A DNA stretch of 54,326 nucleotides, taken from NCBI GenBank assembly GCA_964532805.1, contig CAZHKX010000002.1, positions 1 through 54,326 on the forward strand, written 5' to 3'. The notes beneath the pieces are model-generated. The model saw nothing but the letters and a program-made list of their open reading frames with translations. It made no database searches and had not been told where the DNA came from. A program made the translations under genes and the position numbers. The stretch's first letter is position 1. Every line of letters starts with the position of its first letter. This document shows, piece after piece, positions 112-37,147 of the stretch. The stretch is from an uncultured Clostridia bacterium. Lineage in GTDB: Bacteria; Bacillota; DTU025; MWDF01.

Positions 112-633
112 ATGTCTTCCAACAGGACCAGCCAGCTTACCATATCGGCTATGTCCATAGCCCTAGCGCTAGTCATCCCGAGGCTTCTGCATTCGGTGCC
201 GAACGCCGGAACGCTCTTCCTTCCGATGCATTTCCCTATTCTGATGGGAGCATTCTTCCTCGAGCCGGGCTATGCTCTCATGGTAGGCCTGATTACTCCC
301 GCCTTGAGCACCGTCATAACTGGCATGCCGCCGGCATTTCCAGTGCTTCCCTTCATGATGGCTGAACTTGCGACCTATGCGCTTGCGGCGAGCATGCTTT
401 CAAGAAAGCTGAAGCTCGACAGGACGATATCCCTTGTGGGAGCCATGGTGCTTGGACGGGCCGCAGCTTCAGTAGCTGTGTGGGTCCTAGTCGTAGCATT
501 CGGGGCGAAGCTTCCCTCGGCATGGAAGTTCTTCCTTGCGGCGTTCACGGGAAGCCTGCCAGGCATTGCGATACAGCTTGCCCTCATCCCTTCAATCGTA
601 TCGGTGGTGCAGAAGGGCAGATCCTCAAGGTAG
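112..633 (+). CDS. ECF-transporter S-component-like integral membrane protein (substrate unknown)
   Basis: 173-aa ORF with a GGAGGT RBS 6-7 nt upstream. About 6 hydrophobic helices. LPMHFPILMGAFFLEPG and GMPPAFPVLPFM motifs resemble ECF S components. Confidence 0.55.
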   Translation: MSSNRTSQLTISAMSIALALVIPRLLHSVPNAGTLFLPMHFPILMGAFFLEPGYALMVGLITPALSTVITGMPPAFPVLPFMMAELATYALAASMLSRKLKLDRTISLVGAMVLGRAAASVAVWVLVVAFGAKLPSAWKFFLAAFTGSLPGIAIQLALIPSIVSVVQKGRSSR

Positions 634-2609: not shown

Positions 2610-2839
2610 GAGCCTACCTCCGATGCGTAGCTATTTTAAGCATATCAAAGCAATTATACATCATAAGGGCGAAACGGACAGAAGTGGCGCATCCGGCAAG
2701 CTTAAGAAGGCCTAGATGCCGCATCATCCGCATTTGAGACGCTCTAAGCCCGGGCGTATTTGGGGCAGGGGTATCTGCACAGCTTATTTGCACTACAATA
2801 CTGTCCCGGTCATTGATAAAATAGTAAAGGAGTTGCGAC

Positions 2840-2880
2840 GGCGCGGGCATCGTGTCTTACGGCCCGCGCCGAGATTTTCC
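2840..2880 (+). terminator. Terminator-like hairpin immediately upstream of the HAD/gpmI RBS (possible leader attenuator)
   Basis: GGCGCGGGC (2840-2848) / GCCCGCGCC (2862-2870) form a perfect 9-bp stem with a 13-nt loop, then GAGATTTTCC. There is no + strand gene upstream for it to terminate. Confidence 0.35.
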
Positions 2881-2892
2881 AAAGGAGGAAAG

Positions 2893-3714
2893 ATGCCTTA
2901 CAGGATGCTAGTCACAGACCTGGATTTCACGTGCCTTAACGAGGCGCATGAGATTCCGGAGGGCAACCTGCTTGCGGCAAGGCGTGCCGTCGAAGAGGGG
3001 ATAATCTTCACCGTAGCTACGGGAAGGGGAAAGGCCGCCGCCGACAAGATCGTCAGGACGCTGGGGCCGAACGCCCCGGTCATCCTACAGAACGGCATGA
3101 ACATATATGATTTCGGTACGGAGAGGATGATAGCGGAGCACCTCATAGACACCGACGTCGCCATCAGGTCCGTCATCTGGGCCCAAGAACGCGGCCTGAT
3201 ACCGGTCCTTTCCATGGACGACAGGCATTACGTGGCGAACAGGGACCACCCAAGGATCTTCGCGCTTGAAAGGCTCGAAGGCGTGCCCACCGTGGAGACC
3301 GGCGACATGGCCGGATTCCTGATGGATGCAAGAGAATCGGTCAGGGTGGCGAATGTCCTATACATCTGCACCGAAGAGGAGCGCGATTCCCTTGCCCAGG
3401 AGGCGTCGGCCGCCTTCCCTGAGGTCAAGGTGATAGTCTCCGGCCCTCCTTTCGTGGAGTTTCTGAACAGGGACGCATCGAAAGGGCACGCGCTTAAGGA
3501 GATATGCGAGATAATGGGCATAGACCTGAAAGATGTCGTCTCCGTGGGGGATGCGCCAAACGATGCCGAGATGTTAATGGAATCCGGCATGTCCTATGCC
3601 GTGGCCAACGCAGAGGAAGAGATCAAGAGGATAGCGAAGAAGACAGCGGCCAGGACCAACTCGGAGGCGGTCCTCCCCGAGATATTATGGGACGCGTTCG
3701 GCATAGCCGTCTGA
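2893..3714 (+). CDS. Cof-type HAD-IIB family hydrolase (sugar-phosphate phosphatase-like)
   Basis: Start moved to the ATG at 2893 (AAAGGAGG RBS). HAD motif I is LVTDLDFTCL and motif IV is SVGDAPNDAEML. Length is 273 aa. Confidence 0.8.
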   Translation: MPYRMLVTDLDFTCLNEAHEIPEGNLLAARRAVEEGIIFTVATGRGKAAADKIVRTLGPNAPVILQNGMNIYDFGTERMIAEHLIDTDVAIRSVIWAQERGLIPVLSMDDRHYVANRDHPRIFALERLEGVPTVETGDMAGFLMDARESVRVANVLYICTEEERDSLAQEASAAFPEVKVIVSGPPFVEFLNRDASKGHALKEICEIMGIDLKDVVSVGDAPNDAEMLMESGMSYAVANAEEEIKRIAKKTAARTNSEAVLPEILWDAFGIAV

Positions 3715-3746
3715 CGCCCCCGCCTATAGAAACGGAAGGTGATCTA

Positions 3747-5282
3747 ATGAACGCAGGCAAGAAAGTGATGCTAGTCATAATGGACGGCTGGGGCGTACCC
3801 AAGAAGCTCGCCGACAGCGCCATAAACCCCGTCAACGCACCCAACGTCACCCATTATTCCGACCTTAACGCATACTGCACGCTACCCGCCCACGGAGGGG
3901 CGGTAGGCCTTCCCGACGGCCAGATGGGCGGCTCCGAGGTGGGGCATCTGTGCCTCGGCTCCGGAAGGATAGTCCCGCAGGCGCTCGCCTACATAGACGG
4001 GCTTGTGGAAAGCGGCGAGTTCTATAACAACAAGGTGCTCCATGATGCATTCGACGCGGCAACGGGCTCGGGCGGCGCAGTGCACCTTATGGGCCTGCTC
4101 TCCCCCGGAGGGGTTCACTCCCATACAAGGCACGTCGAGGCGCTTGTCAGGTTTGCAAAGGCCAGGGGCGTCAAGGAGCTGTTCATACACGCTTTCCTTG
4201 ACGGAAGGGACGTGGCCCCCAGAAGCGCAAGGGACCAGGTCGCAGACGTGGAGGCAATGCTGAAGCGCGAGGGCCTTGGCAGAATCGCCACCGTATCCGG
4301 CAGGTATTATCCCATGGACCGCGACAACAGGTGGGACAGGGTTAAGAAGGGCTGGGACGCGATGGTCCTCGGAAGAGGAAGGATAGCGGCCCACGCGACC
4401 GAGGCCATAGAAGCATCCTACCAGGAGGGGGTAAGCGACGAGTTCGTAGTACCCACCGTCATCTTCAACGACGGCGCCGCTATCGGCACGGTCAAAGACG
4501 GCGACTCTGTCATCTTCTTCAACTTCAGGGGCGACCGCGCAAGGGAGATCACAAGGGCCTTCAACGAGCCCGGCTTCAACGCCTTCGAAAGGGAGGCCTC
4601 CCCGAAGGTGCACTATGTGTGCTTCATGGACTATCTGAAGGAGCCGGGATACAAGATAGCATTCTCTCAGCCGGACACTGCTGACGGGCTTTCGGAGACG
4701 CTGTCGAGGCACGGCTTAAGGCAGCTGCACACCGCCGAGACGGAGAAGTTCGCCCATGTCACTTACTTTTTCAACGGCGGAAGGGAGGAGCCGTTCGAAG
4801 GGGAGGACCGCATCATGGTCCCGTCCCCGAAGGTGGCGACCTATGACCTGAAGCCCGAGATGAGCGCGCATGAGGTGGCCGAGACAGTAGTTGAGGCGCT
4901 CAGGTCGGAGAAGTACGATTTCATAGCCGTCAACTTCGCAAACTGCGACATGGTTGGCCACACGGGAGTATATGAGGCGGCGGTCCAGGCGGTGCGCACA
5001 GTTGACTTCTGCGTGGGAAGGGTAGTGGAGAAGGCGAAGGCCATGGGCTGGACTGTCATGATAACGGCGGACCACGGCAACGCCGACGAGATGAAGGACC
5101 CGGCGACCGGAGAGATGTCGACCGCGCATTCATTGAACCCGGTGCCCTTCATCGTCATCGGGGAGGATTACTCGAAGCTAAGGTCCGACGGAAATTTCGG
5201 CGATGTCGCGCCGACGATACTGGAGGCCTTCGGAATAGAAAAGCCGGCCGCGATGGCCGGCAGAAGCCTGGCGATTAGATGA
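3747..5282 (+). CDS. gpmI: 2,3-bisphosphoglycerate-independent phosphoglycerate mutase
   Basis: Start at the ATG at 3747 (MNAGKKVMLVIMDGWG). Motifs GGSEVGHL, NFANCDMVGHTG and ADHGNAD are present. Length is 511 aa. Confidence 0.95.
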   Translation: MNAGKKVMLVIMDGWGVPKKLADSAINPVNAPNVTHYSDLNAYCTLPAHGGAVGLPDGQMGGSEVGHLCLGSGRIVPQALAYIDGLVESGEFYNNKVLHDAFDAATGSGGAVHLMGLLSPGGVHSHTRHVEALVRFAKARGVKELFIHAFLDGRDVAPRSARDQVADVEAMLKREGLGRIATVSGRYYPMDRDNRWDRVKKGWDAMVLGRGRIAAHATEAIEASYQEGVSDEFVVPTVIFNDGAAIGTVKDGDSVIFFNFRGDRAREITRAFNEPGFNAFEREASPKVHYVCFMDYLKEPGYKIAFSQPDTADGLSETLSRHGLRQLHTAETEKFAHVTYFFNGGREEPFEGEDRIMVPSPKVATYDLKPEMSAHEVAETVVEALRSEKYDFIAVNFANCDMVGHTGVYEAAVQAVRTVDFCVGRVVEKAKAMGWTVMITADHGNADEMKDPATGEMSTAHSLNPVPFIVIGEDYSKLRSDGNFGDVAPTILEAFGIEKPAAMAGRSLAIR

Positions 5283-22608: not shown

Positions 22609-23535
22609 TTGGTTTTATCTATCGGTGACGTCATGCTGGATATATACATAGACGAGCCGTCGGAGCTGAACAGGGACACCGACACTCCCGGAAGGACTGC
22701 ATTAAACTGGGGGGGCTCCGCCGCAAACTTCGCGGTTTGGGCTTCTAGGCTTGGCCTTGTTAGTGCGATATCGGGTCGAGTAGGCGCGGATTTCGTCGGT
22801 GAAGCTGCGATAGCCGATTTCGAAAGGGAGAATGTCCTGCCGCTTCTAGCCCGTGATTCAGCCCTTCCCACCGGCACGGTCGTAGTAAGAAGCAGGAGGG
22901 GCTCAGGCCGCGAGATGATATGCGACAGGAAGGCGAATGCGGCATTCTCCGCTGCAGACCTTCCCTTGGATAAGATCAGGGGCGCGAAGTGGGTTCACAT
23001 CTCAGGCTACACCGTTATTGAAGAGGCGCCGAGAGCTGCGGTAAAAGCGGCGATCGCAGCCGCTTCAGATGGCGATGCCGTAATCTCGGTGGACCCCGGC
23101 TCGTGTTCGCTTATCGGAAGCATGGGCGTCATGAGATTCATGGATGCGGTCCGCGGCGCCTCGCTTATTATGCCCAACCTGGAGGAGGCGGAGCTGCTTA
23201 CAGGAGAGGAAGAAGTCCAAAAGATGCTTGATGCGCTTCTTGAAAGCTTCCCCTGCGCGGTAATCAAGCTCGGAGCCGATGGAGCCGCCTATGCAGACAG
23301 TCAGGGAGAGCGCGGCAGCAGGGCCGCATTCCCCGCAGTTGCCGTGGACGTAAATGGAGCGGGGGATTCTTTCGCCGCCGCTTTTGCCGCGGAGTATCTG
23401 GAAAGAGGGGACATCGGCCGTGCGACGGAGGCCGGATGCGCTCTGGCGGCATGCGTCGTAGGCGCAAGCGGGGCAAGGCCGACAGTGGGTCTTGATTCCT
23501 GGAAGTCAAGCTACGGAAGGAGGGGACGCTCATGA
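22609..23535 (+). CDS. PfkB-family carbohydrate/nucleoside kinase
   Basis: TTG start at 22609 (GGAGG RBS 6 nt upstream) gives MVLSIGDVMLDIY. The C-terminal VNGAGDSFAAAF is the PfkB signature. Confidence 0.75.
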   Translation: MVLSIGDVMLDIYIDEPSELNRDTDTPGRTALNWGGSAANFAVWASRLGLVSAISGRVGADFVGEAAIADFERENVLPLLARDSALPTGTVVVRSRRGSGREMICDRKANAAFSAADLPLDKIRGAKWVHISGYTVIEEAPRAAVKAAIAAASDGDAVISVDPGSCSLIGSMGVMRFMDAVRGASLIMPNLEEAELLTGEEEVQKMLDALLESFPCAVIKLGADGAAYADSQGERGSRAAFPAVAVDVNGAGDSFAAAFAAEYLERGDIGRATEAGCALAACVVGASGARPTVGLDSWKSSYGRRGRS

Positions 23536-25232
23536 GGCATCGCAGGGCTCTTTCGATAATAGCGCTGATTGCGGCGTGCATTGTCCTGATGCAGCTTGTT
23601 CCGGCTGCGGCTCTTAGCGCCGAGGGCGACACCCCGGAAGGACCGGGCATACCTCCTGAAGGCTGGTCCAGGGAGACGATGCTATGCGAATACTCAAGGC
23701 TGACGGGTGCATTCTCCGCAGGAATATCGGGGAAGACGGTGCTTATCGCCTATTCTGACGGCGAGTACGATTGGCTGAGGGTGGTCGCAAGGGCATTCGA
23801 GCTGACGAAGGACGGCCCGCAGCTTCTGTGGCAGAAGGACGTATCCCAGCAGCAGACGCACAATATCACCCCTACGGTGGTGAGCTCGGCGTCGGGCGGT
23901 TTCCATGTCCTTTGGGTCGAAAGGCCCAACCAGGACGACTACAGCATCAGATACTCTAAGCTTGGCCCGGACGGAACAGCCGTGATCGGCGACACGCTCC
24001 TTGAGACTGCAGGAGGCCCTATTAGGGATATAGCGGCGGTGGAGCTTTTTGACGGTTCGCTTGCGATTGCCTGGTCTGACTGGAGGGGGCGCACGCTCGA
24101 GATAATCAAGGGGCGGGTGACCTTCGGGGGCGGATCGGCCCGGCTTTCGGGATTATCGAACCTTGCCCGCGCTGAGGTGGATAAGGCCATGTCGAACCCG
24201 CGCATGGCATTCGAGAGGGCATCGGGAAGCCTTGTGCTTGTGTGGGTCGAAAGCGGCTTCGAGGAGGCAAACATCTATGCGGCGGGGATCGACCCGGAAA
24301 CCATGGAAGTGCTCGGATCCGAGCTTCTGGGAAGCTTCACCACGGCATCAGGGGGCTATCCCACCGTCGCGGCAGGCGGCCCTGGAGAGGTCTATATAGC
24401 ATGGCCTCAGGATATCAACATCAAATCGCTTACGGCCATAAGGACATCCGACATCATGATGGCCAAGCTCGTGGACGGAAAGCCGGTATGGTCGGGCAAG
24501 ATCGTGGAGCTTCCCGAGGATCAGACGGCCCCGGCGCTTGCCTTCGACGGCGCGGAGCCTTTCGCCGCATGGCACGATTACTCCGAGAGGAGCCCTCACA
24601 CCTGGGTGAGGAGACCGTTTGCAGACGATGCGGCCTACAGGCTCGACTATAGCCTGATGGCGGGCATGAGGCCGGTGGCCCTGATGACTGACGACGGCCT
24701 TGCAGCCGTAATCTACGAGAGGTTCACGGGAGACGGCCCGAGGCAGGCATTTCTCATGTCGCAGGTGAACCCGGCCGTGATAACGCCCCTTTACATCATG
24801 GGCATCGATGAGGCGGCACCTGCAAGGCATGTGGCCTTCACGATGGCGCTCTCCTTCCTGTATGCCGGCATGAACGTCATGGTAAACATAGGGGCGCTGA
24901 TGCTTGGTATGGGCATGCTCTGGCTGATGAAGAAGGCAGGAATCAAGGACAGCCTGAGAAACCGCCCCGAACTCATGGCGGCTGCAATGATCCTGTTCCT
25001 GATGCTGCTGCAGGGGACGCCGCTGTTCGTGTCGCTTCCTGAGATATATGGAGCTGACTTCCACATCATAGCGTCGCTCGCTGCGGCTGTCGGAGCGTTC
25101 TTCCTGATGAGGCTGGGCAGGTCCGAATGGTGGCTCGACTCATTGATGCAGCTTGTATTCATGTGCGTGTGGCTGTTCTTCCAGCAATACGCCCTTCTCA
25201 TACCAGGCATCCTGAAAGTGGGGTTGAGGTAG
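23532..25232 (+). CDS. Hypothetical membrane-anchored protein: signal peptide, beta-propeller-like ectodomain, C-terminal multi-TM domain
   Basis: The start overlaps the pfkB stop (ATGA). At least 6 repeats of a hydrophobic-W-x-D/E blade-like motif occur (FHVLWVERP, LAIAWSDWRG, LVLVWVESG, VYIAWPQD, PFAAWHDY). There are 4-5 C-terminal hydrophobic helices. Confidence 0.5.
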   Translation: MRHRRALSIIALIAACIVLMQLVPAAALSAEGDTPEGPGIPPEGWSRETMLCEYSRLTGAFSAGISGKTVLIAYSDGEYDWLRVVARAFELTKDGPQLLWQKDVSQQQTHNITPTVVSSASGGFHVLWVERPNQDDYSIRYSKLGPDGTAVIGDTLLETAGGPIRDIAAVELFDGSLAIAWSDWRGRTLEIIKGRVTFGGGSARLSGLSNLARAEVDKAMSNPRMAFERASGSLVLVWVESGFEEANIYAAGIDPETMEVLGSELLGSFTTASGGYPTVAAGGPGEVYIAWPQDINIKSLTAIRTSDIMMAKLVDGKPVWSGKIVELPEDQTAPALAFDGAEPFAAWHDYSERSPHTWVRRPFADDAAYRLDYSLMAGMRPVALMTDDGLAAVIYERFTGDGPRQAFLMSQVNPAVITPLYIMGIDEAAPARHVAFTMALSFLYAGMNVMVNIGALMLGMGMLWLMKKAGIKDSLRNRPELMAAAMILFLMLLQGTPLFVSLPEIYGADFHIIASLAAAVGAFFLMRLGRSEWWLDSLMQLVFMCVWLFFQQYALLIPGILKVGLR

Positions 25233-29358: not shown

Positions 29359-29465
29359 GAGCAGAACCTCCCCCGACTGGAATACATCCTATATTATCCC
29401 ACTTTGTGCGCCTTACTGAGAGCGTTTCCTGCTAACTTGGATCAGGTGAGCCGAAGTGCATGAAG

Positions 29466-29494
29466 AAGGCGGCAAAGATAATCCCTGCCGCCTT
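29466..29494 (-). terminator. Putative terminator downstream of the peroxiredoxin gene
   Basis: AAGGCGGC / GCCGCCTT form an 8-bp stem with a 13-nt loop; the T-tract is weak. Confidence 0.3.
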
Positions 29495-29513: not shown

Positions 29514-30125
29514 CTATTCGTCGAAAGCTTCCTTCACGCTCCACACCTTCCAGACGTTTCCCACTAGGTCCGGGGATGGCTTCAACGTCTTCTTCCCTGG
29601 CTTCCAACCTGAAGGCATCGCCTCGGTGCCCTTTGAGGCGCGCACGTGCTGGAAAGCCTTAACCTGCCTTATCGTCTCGCTTACGTTTCTGCCGACTGGG
29701 GGAGTAAGCACCTCGAAACCCTGGACATTCCCGTCAGGATCGATTATGAAGCGGCCACGGGTCTCGATGCCGTCTTCCTCCGAGTAGATGCCGTACAGTT
29801 TCCCTATCTCACCGCCTGAATCGGAGAGCATGGGGAAGGGGATGTCCCGCCCTATCATCTTCGACAGTTCATGGTCGTTCCACATCTTGTGGACAAAATG
29901 GCTGTCTACGCTGCATGAAAGAATCTCAACCCCGAGGCTCTGGAACTCATCGAATTTCTCGGCAACTGCCGAGACCTCGGTCGCTCAGACGAAGGTGAAG
30001 TCTCCCGGATAGAAGCAAAGGACTACCCATTTGCCTTTGTACTCAGATAGGGTGACGTTCGCAAACTTCCCTTTGATGAACGCGGTAGCTGTGAAATCAG
30101 GGGCCGGCTTTCCAACCTTGATCAT
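29514..30125 (-). CDS. prxU: Selenocysteine-containing peroxiredoxin (AhpC/Prx family, PrxU-like); the UGA at 29985-29987 is read as Sec
   Basis: Two track ORFs (29985..30281 and 29514..29885) are in the same frame and separated only by one TGA. That TGA falls on the peroxidatic Cys of FYPGDFTFV-[TGA]-ATEV. The ATG at 30125 has an AAAGGAGGAG RBS. The downstream part [11 protein letters not shown]...[10 protein letters not shown] is typical Prx. See the SECIS feature. Confidence 0.75.
29958..29987 (-). promoter_or_regulatory. UGA codon plus bacterial SECIS-like hairpin
   Basis: On the minus strand: UGA, then 11 nt (GCGACCGAGGU), then CUCGGC-AGUU-GCCGAG. This is a perfect 6-bp stem with GU in the apical loop (29973..29958). 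Confidence 0.65.
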
Positions 30126-30376
30126 CTGCCTTATCTCCTCCTTTGGACCCTCAGCCGAGGCTTCCGGTTGTATTGCTGCAGTTCGCGGTCTCTTTTCAGG
30201 CCTTGAGCATCCCGCCCTGAACTCCTCCGGCATCTCTCGACCTCCTTTCAGAAAGGCTTGATTGCCTAATATGTACTTCAATTTTGTTTGAGCTTTTCCT
30301 TCCAGAGGCTTCCTTTAGGTGACGCACCAGCCTTCCTCGACGTTATAATGCATAGTAAACAAGCCAGTGCATACAG

Positions 30377-30823
30377 ATGGAGGAGATCTCTTTGGACGAT
30401 ATCGAAAAGAACGGAAATCTAAACGCCGAGGAGCAGCAGGCTCAGGCAAGTCCCGAAGCAAAGGAAGCGCTTAAGGCAACCGGAGCTGCCCCGCAGGGAG
30501 CCTACCAGAAGGAGCCGGAGGCTATCATAAACAAGGTTGCAAGGCACTTCCGCCTCTCGAACCTCATATACCTGTTGGGCGTGATACAGATGGCAGGCGG
30601 CGCAGTGCTGGGAGTGGTGCTATTCTTCGTAAGCTTGGCCGGATCCAGGGGCTATGGCTACTATTATTACGGGATCCCCAGGTTCTCTGGCATATTCAGC
30701 TCATTGCTCGCAGGCCTATTCATCTTCCTCGCCTTTGTGGTGAGCGGAGCCATGACTATGGGGTTCGGCAAGCTTGTCCAAGCCGCCGAGATATATATTC
30801 AGAGGCGGTCAAGGAAGGCCTGA
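30377..30823 (+). CDS. Hypothetical membrane protein (acidic N-terminus, 3 TM helices)
   Basis: 148-aa ORF with hydrophobic helices. There is no clear SD. It is followed by a strong terminator. Confidence 0.4.
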   Translation: MEEISLDDIEKNGNLNAEEQQAQASPEAKEALKATGAAPQGAYQKEPEAIINKVARHFRLSNLIYLLGVIQMAGGAVLGVVLFFVSLAGSRGYGYYYYGIPRFSGIFSSLLAGLFIFLAFVVSGAMTMGFGKLVQAAEIYIQRRSRKA

Positions 30824-30845
30824 TATAACCGAACTGAGATGATAA

Positions 30846-30880
30846 GGAATAGCCGCCCGGCAGAGGCGGCTATTCCTTCA
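30846..30880. terminator. Bidirectional terminator hairpin
   Basis: GGAATAGCCGCC / GGCGGCTATTCC form a perfect 12-bp stem with a 7-nt loop, followed by TTCAT. Confidence 0.6.
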
Positions 30881-30899
30881 TAAGCGAGGCAGTCGTCCG

Positions 30900-32138
30900 C
30901 TAGGACATTATGCGCTTCTCGCCTGTCAGAGCCCTGATCTCGCTTATCTCCTGCGAGACTTCCAGGGCACCTTTGTATGCGCCCTCTGCGTCGCGCACTG
31001 CGAAGTATCTGATGTAGACCATCATCCCCCGCATGTTGATCCAGAAATCCTCGTGGTCCTTGGCGCCGGACTTGAAATCGTTTAATATCTGCTCCACAAC
31101 AGCCATGCTCTTCGGCGGATGGCAGTTCTGCACAAGCCTTCCGATTATGGTCTTGTTCCTTGGGAAGATCCTCTCCTTGGAATTCGAGAAGTACCTTACC
31201 ACGTCGTTCTCGTCTATGAACGTGATATCCACGGGCATATGGTTCAGCATTAGTTCGGTCTGCTCAGGGGTCAGGAAGCCCGTCCCGAGGTTCACGGAAT
31301 GAGATATGCCGGCTGCCTCGTAACCGCCTTCTTCAGCGTCCTCGCCGATCGCCACCCTTGAAGGCTTCCACTTCGCGACAGGCTCAACTAGGCAATAGCC
31401 CAGCTCGTCGCTCTCCTTCTCTACTCTTACCCAGTCATCCTCGGTAAGGGCGTTGGTAATCATGGGGAACAGGATGTTCCTTTCTTTGAAGATCATATCT
31501 GTGACCTTCTGCGTAGCCTCGGAGGCGACTCTGATGGCCTCGGGGTTTCTTGCGATGAGGAGAGTCTTAGCCCCCTTGATGAGGGCTCTTATCTCGTCAT
31601 GCACGCCCCACATGACCTTGGGAGGAGCGGTGATGCCGGCTTTCTCCAGGAACGGGAACACGAGGTTCTCCTTCCTAAGGTAGTGCTTGTCCACATCGGC
31701 AAGCCCGTTCAAGGCCTCCAGCAGCTGGTAGCCGTTCGCCTCCGAATGGTCGGCGGAATATGCCTTGAGTGCAGGGACTAGCTTTTCGGCTATCAAGCTT
31801 TCGATGGCCTTGTTCTCGTTTTCCAGCTGGTTTAGGGGGTGCCCGGGGGTATTAAGCGCGCTCTTGGGAATGTGGATGTCTTCGATCGAAGTGCCCATGA
31901 TCGCGGCGTGTACATCGCACATCCTGGTTATCTCCTCAACCGGCATCCCCTCTGATACGAGCTTCGCCTCGATTGCGGCGATCTCTTCGGAGCTTACTCC
32001 TGCGAACAGGGCCTTGAACTCAGCGGTAACCTCTTCCTTCGACCTTCCGCGGTGCAGGTCCATGATAAGCCTCTGAAGGTGGTGCTGCCTTGCGGGGTCA
32101 AGCTTTCCTCCGGCTTCGTTGTGTATCATCTCGCTCAT
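30900..32138 (-). CDS. DUF438 / hemerythrin-like / PAS domain protein (putative O2/NO/redox sensor)
   Basis: 412 aa. N-terminus L..LI.DLH.G.S.EEV..EF (DUF438-like). Central HHE-type segments (CDVHAAIMG, VMWGVHDEIR). PAS-like C-terminus (ITFIDENDVVRYFS...R.......CHPPKS). Confidence 0.65.
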   Translation of the reverse strand: MSEMIHNEAGGKLDPARQHHLQRLIMDLHRGRSKEEVTAEFKALFAGVSSEEIAAIEAKLVSEGMPVEEITRMCDVHAAIMGTSIEDIHIPKSALNTPGHPLNQLENENKAIESLIAEKLVPALKAYSADHSEANGYQLLEALNGLADVDKHYLRKENLVFPFLEKAGITAPPKVMWGVHDEIRALIKGAKTLLIARNPEAIRVASEATQKVTDMIFKERNILFPMITNALTEDDWVRVEKESDELGYCLVEPVAKWKPSRVAIGEDAEEGGYEAAGISHSVNLGTGFLTPEQTELMLNHMPVDITFIDENDVVRYFSNSKERIFPRNKTIIGRLVQNCHPPKSMAVVEQILNDFKSGAKDHEDFWINMRGMMVYIRYFAVRDAEGAYKGALEVSQEISEIRALTGEKRIMS

Positions 32139-32176
32139 ATCTCTCTCCTCCTATGTGAATCCAATCTCGTGGAAAT

Positions 32177-32201
32177 ATATCCTACCGATATAGTAGGATA
32201 T
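32177..32201. repeat. Perfect 9-bp inverted repeat (possible operator or weak terminator)
   Basis: ATATCCTAC-7 nt-GTAGGATAT, located between the helicase stop (32248) and the DUF438 gene start (32138). Confidence 0.4.
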
Positions 32202-32247
32202 AGTTTCTTAAGAATCGGTAATATATATTACGGAGCGAGAAAATTCG

Positions 32248-35200
32248 TCATCCTATGGAAGCGGTCATAGCAATCGACGTGAAATCAGCAGGCATAGGAC
32301 GGTCAAGATGCCACCTGATACTTACCGGGCGATCCCCCTGGGCATCGACGAACCTTGCCGGGCCAAGGTATTTGTAGGGCATAGGCTTATTGAACTCGCC
32401 TGATTTTGTTTCCCTTACGAATAGCAGCACCTTACCGTTAATCCCGTCGCGCGACATGTACCTGGCGGCAGTATTGCTCTGCCTGGAAACAGTGCTTTGT
32501 GTCTGCCAGTGGAATAGGCTCGGGCTTATCGCGTAGTCCTTATACATTGTTGTCGGTGAGAAGCTCTTCTCATCTTTAAAAAGGTTAATAAGCAGGATAT
32601 CGGTGTCTAGCTCCTTAATGTGAAGCACACCTTCGCGGAAGTCAGGCTTCGATTTATCTGTGTACCTTCCTAATGCGGCCAATATCTGATCCCGCGTGTA
32701 GCTGCAGTGCAGATCGAGCGGGCATGTGTATCCGAGATCGAGTCTCTCGTCCACGAAAGTAATCCTGTCCCGGATGATTCTCAGGATCCCTGCTGCCTCA
32801 TCCTTCAATCCAGGATAATCTCCTAGCATCCCCAGGGCGCTTGCAGCATCCAGAAAACCCAAATCTGCTGGAGGGCGACCCCAGAGAGTGTAGTTAAGCA
32901 TAAGCAGCATGCGATTCTCTTCTGCTGTGAAAGAAGCCTCGTGTCTTCTATCGAGCACTGTAAGCGCAAAGTCGATTAATCTCCTCGAGTCACACTGCTG
33001 CAGACGAAAGAGGGCATTTCTCAGCTTGTCTTCGTCGTACGATGCTGAAGGCTGTGCAGGCAGAAGTCCCGCTTCACGACAGAAAGAGGAATACGTTCCC
33101 TTACTGTAGATGTCGGCAAGGCGTACGTTCGGATGGTCTGCGATGAACTCCTCAAGCGAAGGCGCCTTCCCCGCACCTTTATAGGTCCCAAGAGCCCTAA
33201 CGATATACTTCTTGTTCACGATGGCTCCCTGGATGTTGTCGAGCACGTGCTCCTGTGCGACTTTCTCCAAGCTTATGCTGCAGCCTCTCGGCAATGAGGG
33301 GAAGCCTTCCGAGACCTCCTCCTTTAGAGTGTGCCTTGTCCTCGAGAGCAAGGCGCGAAACTTGCTTTCGAAATCGTATTGAGAGTTTGCAGCACCGATA
33401 AAATCAAGCACAGTGAGCTCTGACTTCCCCTCGTATAGCCTTAGTCCCCTTCCAAGCTGCTGAAGAAATATGGTCAGGCTCTCTGTGGGCCTAAGCAGGA
33501 GTATCGTATTAACAAACGGTATATCGACTCCTTCGTTATAAAGGTCGACTGTGAATATGAATTTGATGTCACCATTTCTGAGCCTTCCTACTGTGGCCCC
33601 TCTTTCCTGTTGTGTCGACTTGCCCTCCAGCACCTTAGACATAATTCCGCTTCGGTTAAAGACGTCTGCCATGAATTCGGCATGCCTTAAGCTGGCGCAG
33701 AAGCCGAGCCCTCTAACATTTTCCAGGTCCGCGACATATTTCTCCACGGCATCTGCTATCAGCCTTGCCCTTGCTCCATCTCCTGTATAGATTCTCTCAA
33801 GCGTGCCGGCATCATACCTTCCCCTGGCAAACCTGACATCTCTCAAGTCCACGCTGTCTGCTATTCCGAAGTATTGAAATGGAACAAGAAGCTGCCTGTT
33901 GATGGCCTCCGGCAGCCGGATCTCAACTGCCATGCGCCCATCGAAGAACTCCTGGCAGATGTCCCTGCCGTCCATCCTCTCGGGAGTCGCCGTGAGGCCA
34001 AGAAGGATCTTCGGCTTGAAGTGAGCCAGTATTTGCCTGTAGCTGCCGGCAGCCGAATGATGAAACTCGTCGATGACGATGAAGTCGTAGAAATCCGGGG
34101 GGAGCGCTTCGCATAGCTGTTTCGAATTAATGCTCTGTATAGATGCGAAAAGATGATCGTAGGATGATAATTCAGCTTCCCCATAATAAAGCTCACCGAA
34201 GTTCTGGTCCAGCAGAACGTTTCTGTAGCAGCGAAGGCTTTGGTCAAGGATGTCTTTTCTGTGTGCGACGAAGAGAAAACGGCAACGAGAGCCCGGGTTC
34301 TTGGCAGTGAAGGCTTTGTAATCAAACGCGGAGATGACCGTCTTGCCGGTGCCTGTAGCAGCAACTAAGAGGTTGCTAGTCCTTCCGTGGATCACTCGTT
34401 CCGCCTCTAAGCGTTCGAGCACCTGTTTTTGAAACGGGAACGGTTGAATGACAAACAGGGGCTCATACACCATTCCGTCGCCTCTAGCCTCGGCTTTAAG
34501 GGCGGAGAGCAGCTTTCCTCTGTCAGATTCTGAGTAGCTTTGGAAGTCGGGATCGTTCCAGTATGTCTCGAAAGCGGCGTTAACCCCGGTGACGATATGT
34601 GGAAGGTCGTCGCTTGCTGCCTTCATGTTCCACTCGAGGCCGGATCCAAGGGCGGGGCCGCTAATGTTGGATGAGCCTATGTAAGCAGTGTCCATGCCGC
34701 TGGACCTGTGGAAGATGTAGGCTTTGGCATGAAGTCTGGTGGACCTTGTGTCGTAGTTCACCTTGAGCTGGGTATTACCGATTTTCATGAGCTCATCTAT
34801 GCACTTTATCTCGGTGGCGCCCATATAGCAGGTTGTTATTACACGTATCTTCCCCCGCTCTGAAAGGCGCCTCAGCTCGTCGATTATTAGCCTTAAGCCG
34901 CTCCAGCGAATGAACGAGACGAGTAAGTCCACGGAATCTGACGTAGCTATCTCCTTGCGCAGCTGACTTGCAAGAGAAGGCTCGCTTCCGGACCCCGTGA
35001 AGAGTGCAGAGACGGAGAGAGGCGTATCGGGTCTGTGGACCTTGCCGTCTGGAAGGGCGTAACGGCGTACGGCCCTGTTGAGCACAGCAAGGAGCTTCTC
35101 CATCTTATCGTCTATGAGCATGTCTAAGAGGCCTTCGTCGCCGGAGGCCGCAGACAGGCGACTGATTATGTCGTTGCAGATTGCAAGCTGCGCCTTCTCC

Positions 35201-35421
35201 GCGTCTTTGAAAGGGGCCTTCTCCCCGATGATTATGAGGCCTTTTCTGATGGAATTGCGCATATACTGCGACAAGACATCTGCCGAGGAGGGTGCGGAGA
35301 TCGCCTCTCTGACAATTTCGAACTCGCTGGCGTCGACTCTACTGAGGGACTCCTCAAGTGCCCTTGTTATCATCTCGTCATATATGCCTTCACAAATGGC
35401 CGGAACTTGGCAGCGATCCAT
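32248..35421 (-). CDS. Fusion protein: PLD-family (single HKD) nuclease + SF2 (ResIII/DEAH-type) helicase + DUF3427-like C-terminal domain
   Basis: 1057 aa with a GGGAGTG RBS. HKD motif HAKAYIF-x13-GSSNIS (aa 231-254). Walker A VAATGTGKT (aa 353-361). DEFHH (aa 451-455), LGLTATP, and helicase-C motif QQLGRGLR. The C-terminal ~250 aa carry FHWQTQS, LLFVRE and PYKYLG motifs. Confidence 0.85.
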   Translation of the reverse strand: MDRCQVPAICEGIYDEMITRALEESLSRVDASEFEIVREAISAPSSADVLSQYMRNSIRKGLIIIGEKAPFKDAEKAQLAICNDIISRLSAASGDEGLLDMLIDDKMEKLLAVLNRAVRRYALPDGKVHRPDTPLSVSALFTGSGSEPSLASQLRKEIATSDSVDLLVSFIRWSGLRLIIDELRRLSERGKIRVITTCYMGATEIKCIDELMKIGNTQLKVNYDTRSTRLHAKAYIFHRSSGMDTAYIGSSNISGPALGSGLEWNMKAASDDLPHIVTGVNAAFETYWNDPDFQSYSESDRGKLLSALKAEARGDGMVYEPLFVIQPFPFQKQVLERLEAERVIHGRTSNLLVAATGTGKTVISAFDYKAFTAKNPGSRCRFLFVAHRKDILDQSLRCYRNVLLDQNFGELYYGEAELSSYDHLFASIQSINSKQLCEALPPDFYDFIVIDEFHHSAAGSYRQILAHFKPKILLGLTATPERMDGRDICQEFFDGRMAVEIRLPEAINRQLLVPFQYFGIADSVDLRDVRFARGRYDAGTLERIYTGDGARARLIADAVEKYVADLENVRGLGFCASLRHAEFMADVFNRSGIMSKVLEGKSTQQERGATVGRLRNGDIKFIFTVDLYNEGVDIPFVNTILLLRPTESLTIFLQQLGRGLRLYEGKSELTVLDFIGAANSQYDFESKFRALLSRTRHTLKEEVSEGFPSLPRGCSISLEKVAQEHVLDNIQGAIVNKKYIVRALGTYKGAGKAPSLEEFIADHPNVRLADIYSKGTYSSFCREAGLLPAQPSASYDEDKLRNALFRLQQCDSRRLIDFALTVLDRRHEASFTAEENRMLLMLNYTLWGRPPADLGFLDAASALGMLGDYPGLKDEAAGILRIIRDRITFVDERLDLGYTCPLDLHCSYTRDQILAALGRYTDKSKPDFREGVLHIKELDTDILLINLFKDEKSFSPTTMYKDYAISPSLFHWQTQSTVSRQSNTAARYMSRDGINGKVLLFVRETKSGEFNKPMPYKYLGPARFVDAQGDRPVSIRWHLDRPMPADFTSIAMTASIG

Positions 35422-36011: not shown

Positions 36012-36172
36012 TACAGCATAAGTGAACATTTGTCAAGCAAAAACGCAGTTCAGGGCACTATTAATAATGATTAACCCCTGTCGAGGGGGATGTTGAAAAC
36101 TATATTCGGCAAGTGGAAAATTATTCGCTTGTATGCAATAATTATTGTATATATCGTCTCGCGAGGTGCGGA

Positions 36173-37147
36173 ATGGACAGAGAAGGCTTCCTGAAATATC
36201 TCAAGGGCAAAGGGCTTGATGATGAAGCGGCATCAAGGCAGATGTCCATAGCGGACCATCTGGATACTATGCTCTCCTCAAGGAACGGTCCTCCTGGAAC
36301 AGGATGCGGAAGGAAGGCGGCATCAAGCCTCATCGAGTCGCTTCTTGAATCCGGGCAGGATTCATATGAGAACATGCTTGCCATACTTAGGTACGGCTAT
36401 TTCACGAAGAACGATGAGATCTATAAGACCGCCTTCATGTACCTTGACGGCGCGGAGGCGCTGGACGGCATGTACTATAAGCTTGAGGAAGTGGCAGGAT
36501 CCGAGGAGCGGGACCGCATATTCGGCATGATAGGGCCGATAACGCTGGGCACATCATTCAAGGACAAGGCAGCCGCGACAAGGACTGTCGTTGCCGAGGT
36601 GAAGTCATCGCTGAGCCCTCAGCAAAGGAAGAAACTGTATAACGCAAGCTTCAGGCATCTGGATGATTCCCATTACCTCCCCGACAGGCAAGCTTATGAG
36701 AAGATAGGGGACATCGACGCCTACATAGAGGCGAAGAGGCTGGATTTCGTAAAGGAGCTCGAAGGCCATATGGCCGAGGGCAAGCTTTTCTTCGGGCAGG
36801 AGGTCACCCCAGAGGTAATCGAGCACGTCAAGTCCGACCCCGAGATCGCCTTCGGCAGGAGGGCGGGAAGCGACCTGTTCGTGACTAAGATCCCCTTCAG
36901 GACAAAGCAGTGGCTCTCCGAGAAGGACCCTAAGAAGAAGAGGTATCTCTACTGCCATTGCCCGTGGGCCAGGGAATCCATCCTATCGGATTTGGGCCCG
37001 GTGGACCCGGAGTTCTGCAACTGCAGCGCAGGCTTCCATAAGAAATCATGGGAGGTCATTTTCGGAAGGAAGCTTGATTGCGAGGTCTTAGAATCAGTCC
37101 TTGCTGGAGATGACAGGTGCAGGTTCAGGATAAGCCTGCCGATATAG
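36173..37147 (+). CDS. Hypothetical protein with a Cys-rich C-terminal module
   Basis: Start taken at the ATG at 36173 (GAGGTG upstream). The C-terminus carries CHCPW-x21-CNCSAGF-x17-C-x14-CRF, suggesting a metal or cluster site. Confidence 0.45.
   Translation: MDREGFLKYLKGKGLDDEAASRQMSIADHLDTMLSSRNGPPGTGCGRKAASSLIESLLESGQDSYENMLAILRYGYFTKNDEIYKTAFMYLDGAEALDGMYYKLEEVAGSEERDRIFGMIGPITLGTSFKDKAAATRTVVAEVKSSLSPQQRKKLYNASFRHLDDSHYLPDRQAYEKIGDIDAYIEAKRLDFVKELEGHMAEGKLFFGQEVTPEVIEHVKSDPEIAFGRRAGSDLFVTKIPFRTKQWLSEKDPKKKRYLYCHCPWARESILSDLGPVDPEFCNCSAGFHKKSWEVIFGRKLDCEVLESVLAGDDRCRFRISLPI

Follow-up and report, generated by a model that had tools for sequence, protein, structure and literature searches.

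On the minus strand of contig CAZHKX010000002.1 (GenBank assembly GCA_964532805.1), from an uncultured Clostridia bacterium, two open reading frames (ORFs), 29985..30281 and 29514..29885, lie in the same frame, and only a TGA codon at 29987..29985 stands between them. The whole stretch of DNA analyzed, positions 1 to 54,326 of this contig (54,326 nt), is called the window below. An earlier note on this DNA had proposed that the two ORFs are one gene for a peroxiredoxin (Prx) in which the TGA specifies selenocysteine (Sec), and re-reading the coordinates bore out both the common frame and the single TGA. Past the TGA, exactly 33 sense codons precede the next downstream ATG, so the statement in the note that all 33 codons from the TGA to the annotated Met are sense codons with Prx sequence was exact in its count, and this sequence is conserved in homologs. 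The long frame, prxU, occupies 29514..30233 on the minus strand, as do all the prxU features described here, and consists of 239 codons plus a TAG stop codon (29514..29516). Its codon 83 is the UGA at 29985..29987, the putative Sec codon, which occupies the peroxidatic position in the motif PGDFTFVU, i.e., PxxxTxxU. An internal in-frame ATG (30123..30125; Met37) coincides with the start of the Prx domain and, as judged from the sequence and its conservation, would give a 203-aa product with Sec at residue 47. We conclude, with a probability of roughly nine in ten, that an intact prxU gene lies here and that its product is a peroxiredoxin with a thioredoxin fold, of the Prx1/AhpC class, in which Sec is the peroxidatic residue.

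The assignment to PrxU was made by profile scoring, with the UGA of the 203-aa protein replaced by Cys. Against NF040737 (peroxi_PrxU), an NCBIfam equivalog model whose curated cut-off is 270 bits, the scores were 389.5 bits for the 203-aa form and 401.4 bits for the 239-aa form, which spanned profile positions 2-232 of 233. The score against the AhpC equivalog TIGR03137 was 202.6 bits, under its cut-off of 272, which leaves the protein outside the AhpC/typical 2-Cys group. In Pfam, the 203-aa protein matched AhpC-TSA (1.5e-39) and, in addition, a 1-cysPrx_C tail. The closest solved structures are Prx1-type peroxiredoxins (best 5.6e-51), and in the alignment to them the UGA column is their peroxidatic Cys (FTFVCPTE), in agreement with the earlier placement of the TGA at exactly this catalytic residue. 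At the resolving-Cys site, where the solved structures read VCPAGW or VCPANW, the window protein reads AMPSGW, and the PrxU family consensus is TPSGW.

Reviews count a peroxiredoxin with the motif TxxU as one of the bacterial selenoprotein families that have been verified by experiment (PMC9312934, PMC13188914), and the same two papers cite Soehling et al. 2001 (Biol Chem 382:979) for the Sec-peroxiredoxin of Eubacterium acidaminophilum. PrxU genes have also been reported from the genome sequences of Desulfotignum and Desulfobacterium (PMC4046663). The remark that a Sec-containing Prx was already on record from E. acidaminophilum is thus upheld by the reviews and by the existence of the curated family NF040737. 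The window gene is a genuine member, at the equivalog level, of a selenoprotein family that is already known, curated, and very widespread, and in this sense is not new. Its identification as a Sec-peroxiredoxin of the PrxU kind agrees with the NF040737 score and also with a conserved TGA, a covarying hairpin, and purifying selection, which are presented below.

Relatives were obtained from a scan of one genome per species, which returned at least 597 matching stretches; the best 80 of them (L001-L080, 65%-85% identical) were used, and counts out of 81 refer to the window together with these 80. They belong to Bacillota, Desulfobacterota, Spirochaetota, Chloroflexota, Nitrospirota, Calditrichota, and other phyla, the closest relative among the species-representative genomes being 85% identical to the window prxU. 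Aligning the joined translation to its orthologs and inspecting the Sec/Cys column, as the earlier note had recommended, gave a catalytic TGA in 81/81 sequences and Cys in the same column of other relatives. The latter are a minority of the homologs (P0104, P0105, P0112, P0116, and P0119), and at the DNA level the codon of Cys-form relatives is TGT or TGC. TGA matched by Cys in the same column of homologs is what classically marks a selenoprotein gene.

Had the catalytic TGC or TGT mutated to TGA, the locus would be a pseudogene made of two dead fragments, and two pieces are indeed what ORF lists and gene callers show; it also fits such decay that no Sec machinery was seen in the 54-kb window. 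The identical TGA in 80/80 relatives across phyla, however, effectively refutes this explanation at the family level. Other stops or frameshifts were absent, and the 33 codons that lead from the TGA to the following ATG encode conserved Prx sequence. Between the window and seven relatives, the proportion of nonsynonymous differences (pN) was 0.05-0.16, far under the proportion of synonymous differences (pS), which was 0.7-1.0 with synonymous sites saturated. Because pN is low and much alike upstream and downstream of the TGA, the downstream part has been held in frame by selection.

An error of sequencing or assembly is still easier to set aside. Nothing specific speaks for it. Both the TGA and the hairpin recur in a contig from an independent sequencing run (SRR21848550), 99.78% identical to window positions 29892..33070 (3.2 kb), and the TGA is kept throughout the family; this explanation is refuted, and its residual probability is negligible.

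Reassignment of TGA to a sense codon (genetic code 4 or 25), with Trp or Gly as the residue, could be suspected from the public databases, as most of the close homologs there print 'W' at the catalytic column and a few print Cys. But TGA is the stop codon of 6 of the 16 well-defined genes in the window, and this stop usage refutes reassignment. One of these genes is gpmI, in which the profile match reaches to within 3 residues of the TGA stop. An in-frame TGA occurs in prxU only; a window-wide scan for other TGA-interrupted frames returned no convincing case apart from prxU, the rest being out-of-frame and noise-like (57% GC). Moreover, with Trp or Gly as the peroxidatic residue the enzyme would be inactive. 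We regard reassignment as exceedingly improbable. In P0007, the DNA behind the printed 'W' is TGA, a stop under code 11, and the 'W' at the PrxU catalytic site is a gene-caller artefact produced by a code-4 call. Most of the family's entries among the protein database hits (P0001-P0120 and P0121-P0270) are wrong at this site. Many of the 50%-identity cluster representatives are 95-150-aa C-terminal fragments that start past the Sec codon. The expectation that ORF callers would split the gene was therefore correct, as seen from an 82-aa fragment, the fragmentary cluster representatives, and the 'W' printed for TGA.

Eleven nucleotides past the UGA, the sequence CUCGGC-AGUU-GCCGAG (29973..29958) forms the hairpin that the earlier note had likened, for its spacing and the GU in its loop, to a bacterial selenocysteine insertion sequence (SECIS). 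It is present, it covaries, and with an extra U-A pair its stem has 7 bp, so the element extends over 29957..29974, with 29974..29968 paired to 29963..29957 and a loop AGUU at 29967..29964 (G29966 and U29965). A 56-nt stretch containing it folded at -21.6 kcal/mol (z = -2.56 against shuffled sequences), and 3/200 shuffles were as stable. In bacteria, a SECIS is a stable stem-loop that directly follows the UGA and has a G in its small apical loop (PMC1088965), and the window hairpin has these features, its stem lying 10-11 nt past the UGA and its small loop having a G.

The conservation of the hairpin in orthologs was examined in an alignment of 72 nt around the UGA in the 81 sequences. The hairpin was kept in 81/81 (its recurrence, like that of the TGA, in 80/80 relatives far exceeds what chance would give), with standard pairs in 98.6% of the cells of the 7-bp stem and compensatory changes on both sides in four of the seven stem pairs. 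The clearest pair joins a Ser wobble position to the wobble position of the second Ala (columns 30/39), and is AU in 45 sequences, GC in 29, UA in 5, CG in 1, and GU in 1, with none unpaired. The observed pairing values were reached in 0/500 shuffles, and controls in which the 3' partner was slid paired at 41%-71%. RNAalifold independently predicted the identical hairpin. The loop is AGUU or, in many relatives, GGUC, and its G and U are invariant in the 81 sequences. The lower stems of the window's own fold were poorly conserved, and the apical 7-bp hairpin alone was kept in the model. A hairpin with compensatory changes, and pN far under pS on either side of the TGA, are at odds with decay. 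Because the TGA is conserved, the hairpin covaries, pN is low, and TGA serves other genes in the window as an ordinary stop, we consider prxU a real selenoprotein gene and its decay into a pseudogene very unlikely.

The N-terminal part of the gene differs from what had been described. The earlier note had placed the start at the ATG at 30125, behind a strong ribosome-binding site, with a 203-aa product; both the site (AAAGGAGGAG at 30144..30135, preceding the ATG at 30125..30123) and the ATG are present and conserved. It had overlooked, however, a second ATG at 30233..30231, located 108 bases (36 codons) further upstream and served by a ribosome-binding site as strong as that of the first, a Shine-Dalgarno sequence AAGGAGGT at 30240..30247, 6 nt upstream of the ATG. 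The family-typical prxU probably begins at this upstream ATG (239 aa, Sec83), so that the 203-aa product probably represents only a part of what the gene encodes. Most of the database homologs are 236-240 aa long, and in 79 of the 80 loci the tblastn match began at query residue 1 or 3 and ended at residues 232-239; in the other locus (L079) it covered residues 31-239. The upstream start, which is GTG or TTG in some relatives, had a Shine-Dalgarno match of at least 4 nt in 75 of 77 relatives. From the ATG at 30233, the window protein has the N-terminal motif of the family, EEFKxGCxRP, in an extension of about 36 aa.

Within this extension, the alignment of homologs distinguished a conserved N-terminal peptide (30198..30233) from a variable linker (30126..30197; residues 13-36). 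The former contains Cys9 (codon TGC, 30209..30207), which was invariant in 94/94 aligned homologs, and Pro12, conserved in at least 90%; in 78/78 loci there was a Cys upstream of the Prx domain. The extension has 34-41 codons in most loci, and the linker varies in sequence and is always in frame and free of stops. It is probably disordered, as judged from the alignment and from the AlphaFold2 (AF2) model of the Cys-form homolog P0105. This model had an overall mean predicted local distance difference test (pLDDT) of 85.5 and a confident Prx domain; the mean was about 69 for residues 1-10, with a strand at residues 3-5, and values were below 50 for the linker (residues 14-32).

The linker also contains the internal Shine-Dalgarno sequence, AAGGAGG at 30143..30137. 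The internal start codon was ATG in 76/77 relatives, and the Met was conserved in at least 90% in the alignments. In 76/77 loci the internal Shine-Dalgarno match was at least 5 nt long, whereas 5.8% of the control positions within genes had such a match, and the GAG:GAA ratio was 96:27 in the six codons before the internal ATG, against 306:665 in the rest of the gene. Cys-form relatives (among L084-L088) also keep the internal start site. The PrxU family thus seems, on these sequence comparisons, to keep two in-frame initiation sites, which suggests that two isoforms, of 239 and 203 aa, may be produced. No description of an N-terminal Cys arm or of dual initiation in a Sec-Prx was found in the searchable literature.

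Other Prx1-type lineages (P0135, P0208, P0213, P0246, and P0261) have short Cys-rich N-terminal extensions of their own, for example MDCCKD..., MSCMNDCGCDQ..., MGCCENQCDE..., and MCNDCNCEN.... A Cys-bearing peptide at the N-terminus may therefore be a solution that recurs in this superfamily.

From these elements we propose a scheme whose decoding and peroxide steps follow established bacterial Sec decoding and peroxiredoxin chemistry. The hairpin 11 nt past the UGA would act as a bacterial SECIS, recruiting SelB-GTP-Sec-tRNA(Sec) to the ribosome, so that the UGA at 29987..29985 would be read as Sec; in this organism, Sec would then actually be inserted at this codon. The selenolate of Sec83 would attack a hydroperoxide, giving a selenenic acid that a thiol would reduce. 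The most likely first thiol would be that of Cys9, carried on the flexible N-terminal arm of the long isoform, with a Cys9-Sec83 selenenylsulfide as the product, which thioredoxin or a similar redoxin would then reduce. Cys9 is taken as the resolving thiol of the long isoform because the C-terminal resolving Cys is missing, Cys9 is invariant, and the linker is predicted to be disordered, while thioredoxin is put forward as the final reductant because the family name suggests so. The short isoform started at the ATG at 30125, without Cys9, may also be made.

These considerations bear on the statement in the earlier note that the protein, having no Cys at the usual resolving position, would be a 1-Sec enzyme. 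The first part held, as the canonical site reads AMPSGW and has no Cys, but the second is not established, the extension having an invariant Cys; '1-Sec enzyme' would apply to the short isoform only. The sequences show family membership, the conserved UGA with its Cys counterparts, the covarying hairpin, purifying selection through the UGA, and conservation of both starts; Sec insertion in this particular organism, the resolving function of Cys9, the identity of the reductant, and the making of two isoforms are inferred. A broader generalization is more tentative, and we consider it less likely than not: PrxU genes, in both Sec and Cys forms, might give two proteins from each frame, a long one with a disordered arm of about 25 residues, in which the Cys of GCxRP would be a tethered resolving thiol (forming the Cys9-Sec83 selenenylsulfide), and a short one, begun at Met37 behind the conserved internal Shine-Dalgarno sequence, that would lack this Cys and be a 1-Sec enzyme, with the isoform ratio setting the recycling.

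Several observations weigh against the reading given above. No selA, selB, selD, or tRNA-Sec was found in the 54-kb window, whose sole tRNA is tRNA-Gln, and the view of the earlier note that this organism has the Sec-insertion machinery is supported only indirectly. No SECIS-type family of Rfam was matched in the window at the gathering threshold, or in 29850..30100 at E up to 10; it seems that no curated covariance model covers this short, gene-specific element, and the missing match says little. The conservation of the hairpin is partly due to the conserved peptide S-A-V-A-E, and the invariant G and U of the loop are the first two bases of the Val codon. As the peptide itself is conserved, only the covariation at synonymous sites is independent evidence. 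For the resolving thiol, the role of Cys9 is drawn solely from its conservation and the missing C-terminal resolving Cys; when the wider family was surveyed for N-terminal versus C-terminal Cys, the matches from a 50%-identity library were for the most part eukaryote-type Prx and fragments made by gene callers.

The Cys forms provide a further point of this kind. In four cases, 3/7, 3/7, 6/7, and 7/7 pairs of the hairpin were present. The two most distant Cys forms, of the Peptoniphilus type, are those without the hairpin (3/7 pairs), while the Cys forms nearest the Sec clade retain it, with 7/7 pairs in L086:1821 and 6/7 in L087:602, where the catalytic codons are TGC/TGT and the loops are altered (GAUC and GGUA, respectively). 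Because two Cys forms keep it, the hairpin alone is no proof of Sec decoding. The hairpin-keeping Cys forms may be fossils of recent Sec-to-Cys conversion, but with four Cys cases this control is no more than suggestive.

It could accordingly be argued that the gene is intact but that its UGA is not, or is no longer, read as Sec in this organism, the machinery having been recently lost, or that there is low read-through by a near-cognate tRNA (Trp or Cys). What is known of the Sec machinery, namely its absence from the 54-kb window, is compatible with this, as is the occurrence of Sec-to-Cys conversions in the family, with two Cys forms that still have the hairpin. Loss of the machinery, however, would leave a useless gene that would soon be damaged, whereas the SECIS is perfect (7/7 pairs) in the window and in the sister strain, and no decay is apparent relative to the 85%-identical relative; we judge this explanation unlikely, though somewhat less so than the pseudogene. 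At the family level, Sec use is supported by the published PrxU genes and by locus L052, from a metagenome-assembled genome of Sediminispirochaetaceae, where a tRNA-SeC gene (anticodon TCA; 153-242, minus strand) lies directly upstream of prxU (458-1180). This was the sole tRNA-SeC/prxU adjacency among the 60 loci scanned.

Downstream of prxU, a possible intrinsic terminator at 29461..29492 on the minus strand begins 21 nt past the stop codon and consists of GGCGGCA, an 11-nt loop, and TGCCGCC, followed by UUCUUCA. It was spotted by eye and is a weak candidate, and a consensus terminator scanner did not report it, probably because the loop exceeds its 8-nt limit. A promoter scan upstream of prxU returned no sigma-70 consensus site.

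The window as a whole is a housekeeping region in the style of Bacillota, with spoVG-like, glmU, prs, pth, mfd, yabN, metG, and gpmI genes, its further larger ORFs including sugar kinases and a GntR regulator. Within it, prxU stands alone between the gene for an AbrB-family membrane protein and that for a small membrane protein. No conserved neighbors that might hint at the reductant were found among the relatives, as 147 flanking ORFs fell into 130 clusters, the largest with three members. The 85%-identical relative had no nucleotide-level synteny with the window, and the protein encoded beside prxU had matches on three short Logan contigs only.

Some of the surrounding genes are recorded here in their own right. 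Upstream of prxU and on the same strand, 30900..32138 encodes a 412-aa protein with DUF438, hemerythrin, and PAS_10 domains, which could be a sensor of O2, NO, or redox state; the small membrane-protein ORF 30377..30823, on the opposite strand, separates the two genes. Further on, 32248..35421 (minus strand) encodes a 1057-aa protein with a PLD-like nuclease domain, a ResIII/helicase core, and DUF3427, which looks like a defense- or restriction-type enzyme amid housekeeping genes. Two plus-strand ORFs, 23532..25232 (566 aa) and 36113..37147 (344 aa), had no NCBIfam match at E up to 1e-5. The gpmI ORF, 3504..5282 on the plus strand, has about 80 surplus N-terminal residues, its profile match beginning at residue 82-86, and as listed it overlaps the upstream ORF 2716..3714; the true gpmI start is probably further downstream.

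The practical consequence of this analysis concerns annotation. Generic ORF callers halve prxU or print Trp at its catalytic site, which has left many broken or wrong database entries, and recognition of the PrxU signature repairs the gene model, upstream start included. An intact prxU is also a marker of Sec use and of a need for selenium in this uncultured Bacillota-like bacterium. The window gene itself adds one member to a large and widespread family (at least 597 matches in species-representative genomes), and neither the N-terminal arm with its invariant Cys nor the second start is peculiar to the window, both being conserved features of the family. What we carry forward is the corrected model (239 aa from 30233), caution about the '1-Sec' description, the Cys arm, and the two in-frame starts.

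Compared with known systems, the hairpin resembles bacterial SECIS elements such as that of E. coli fdhF in being a stem-loop that begins some 11 nt past the UGA and has a G in its small apical loop. The loop of the fdhF element is GGUC, with G23 and U24 essential; GGUC is also the loop in many PrxU relatives, and counted from the U of the UGA, the G-U of the PrxU hairpin is 22-23 nt away. In contrast to the fdhF element, the stem in the window is short (7 bp) and has no conserved bulged U. With regard to the protein, the window product is like the PrxU of Eubacterium (Peptoclostridium) acidaminophilum and the family NF040737 in having a Prx1/AhpC-type domain, Sec at the PxxxTxxU peroxidatic position, and no C-terminal resolving Cys, and it scores 120-130 bits over the family cut-off. 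There is no difference in kind from the E. acidaminophilum protein, the window gene coming from an uncultured Bacillota-like genome. The PrxU purified from E. acidaminophilum is said to be a protein of about 22 kDa, with 203 aa and Sec47, which would correspond to the short form. The long architecture of the window protein (239 aa, Sec83) is, by published annotation and not by sequence, like that of the seleno-peroxiredoxin CLOST_2406 of Clostridium sticklandii, which has 240 aa and Sec84, i.e., is annotated from the upstream start (PMC3091704, Table 2). Finally, the typical 2-Cys Prx/AhpC proteins, such as Salmonella AhpC (1yep) and human Prx2 (1qmv), have the same fold and active-site motif (E values of 1e-43 to 1e-51), and by analogy the window protein would share their thiol-dependent peroxidase chemistry. 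It differs from them in having Sec instead of Cys, (T/M)PS in place of the VCP of the resolving Cys, an additional Cys peptide at the N-terminus, and a C-terminal tail that is distinct.

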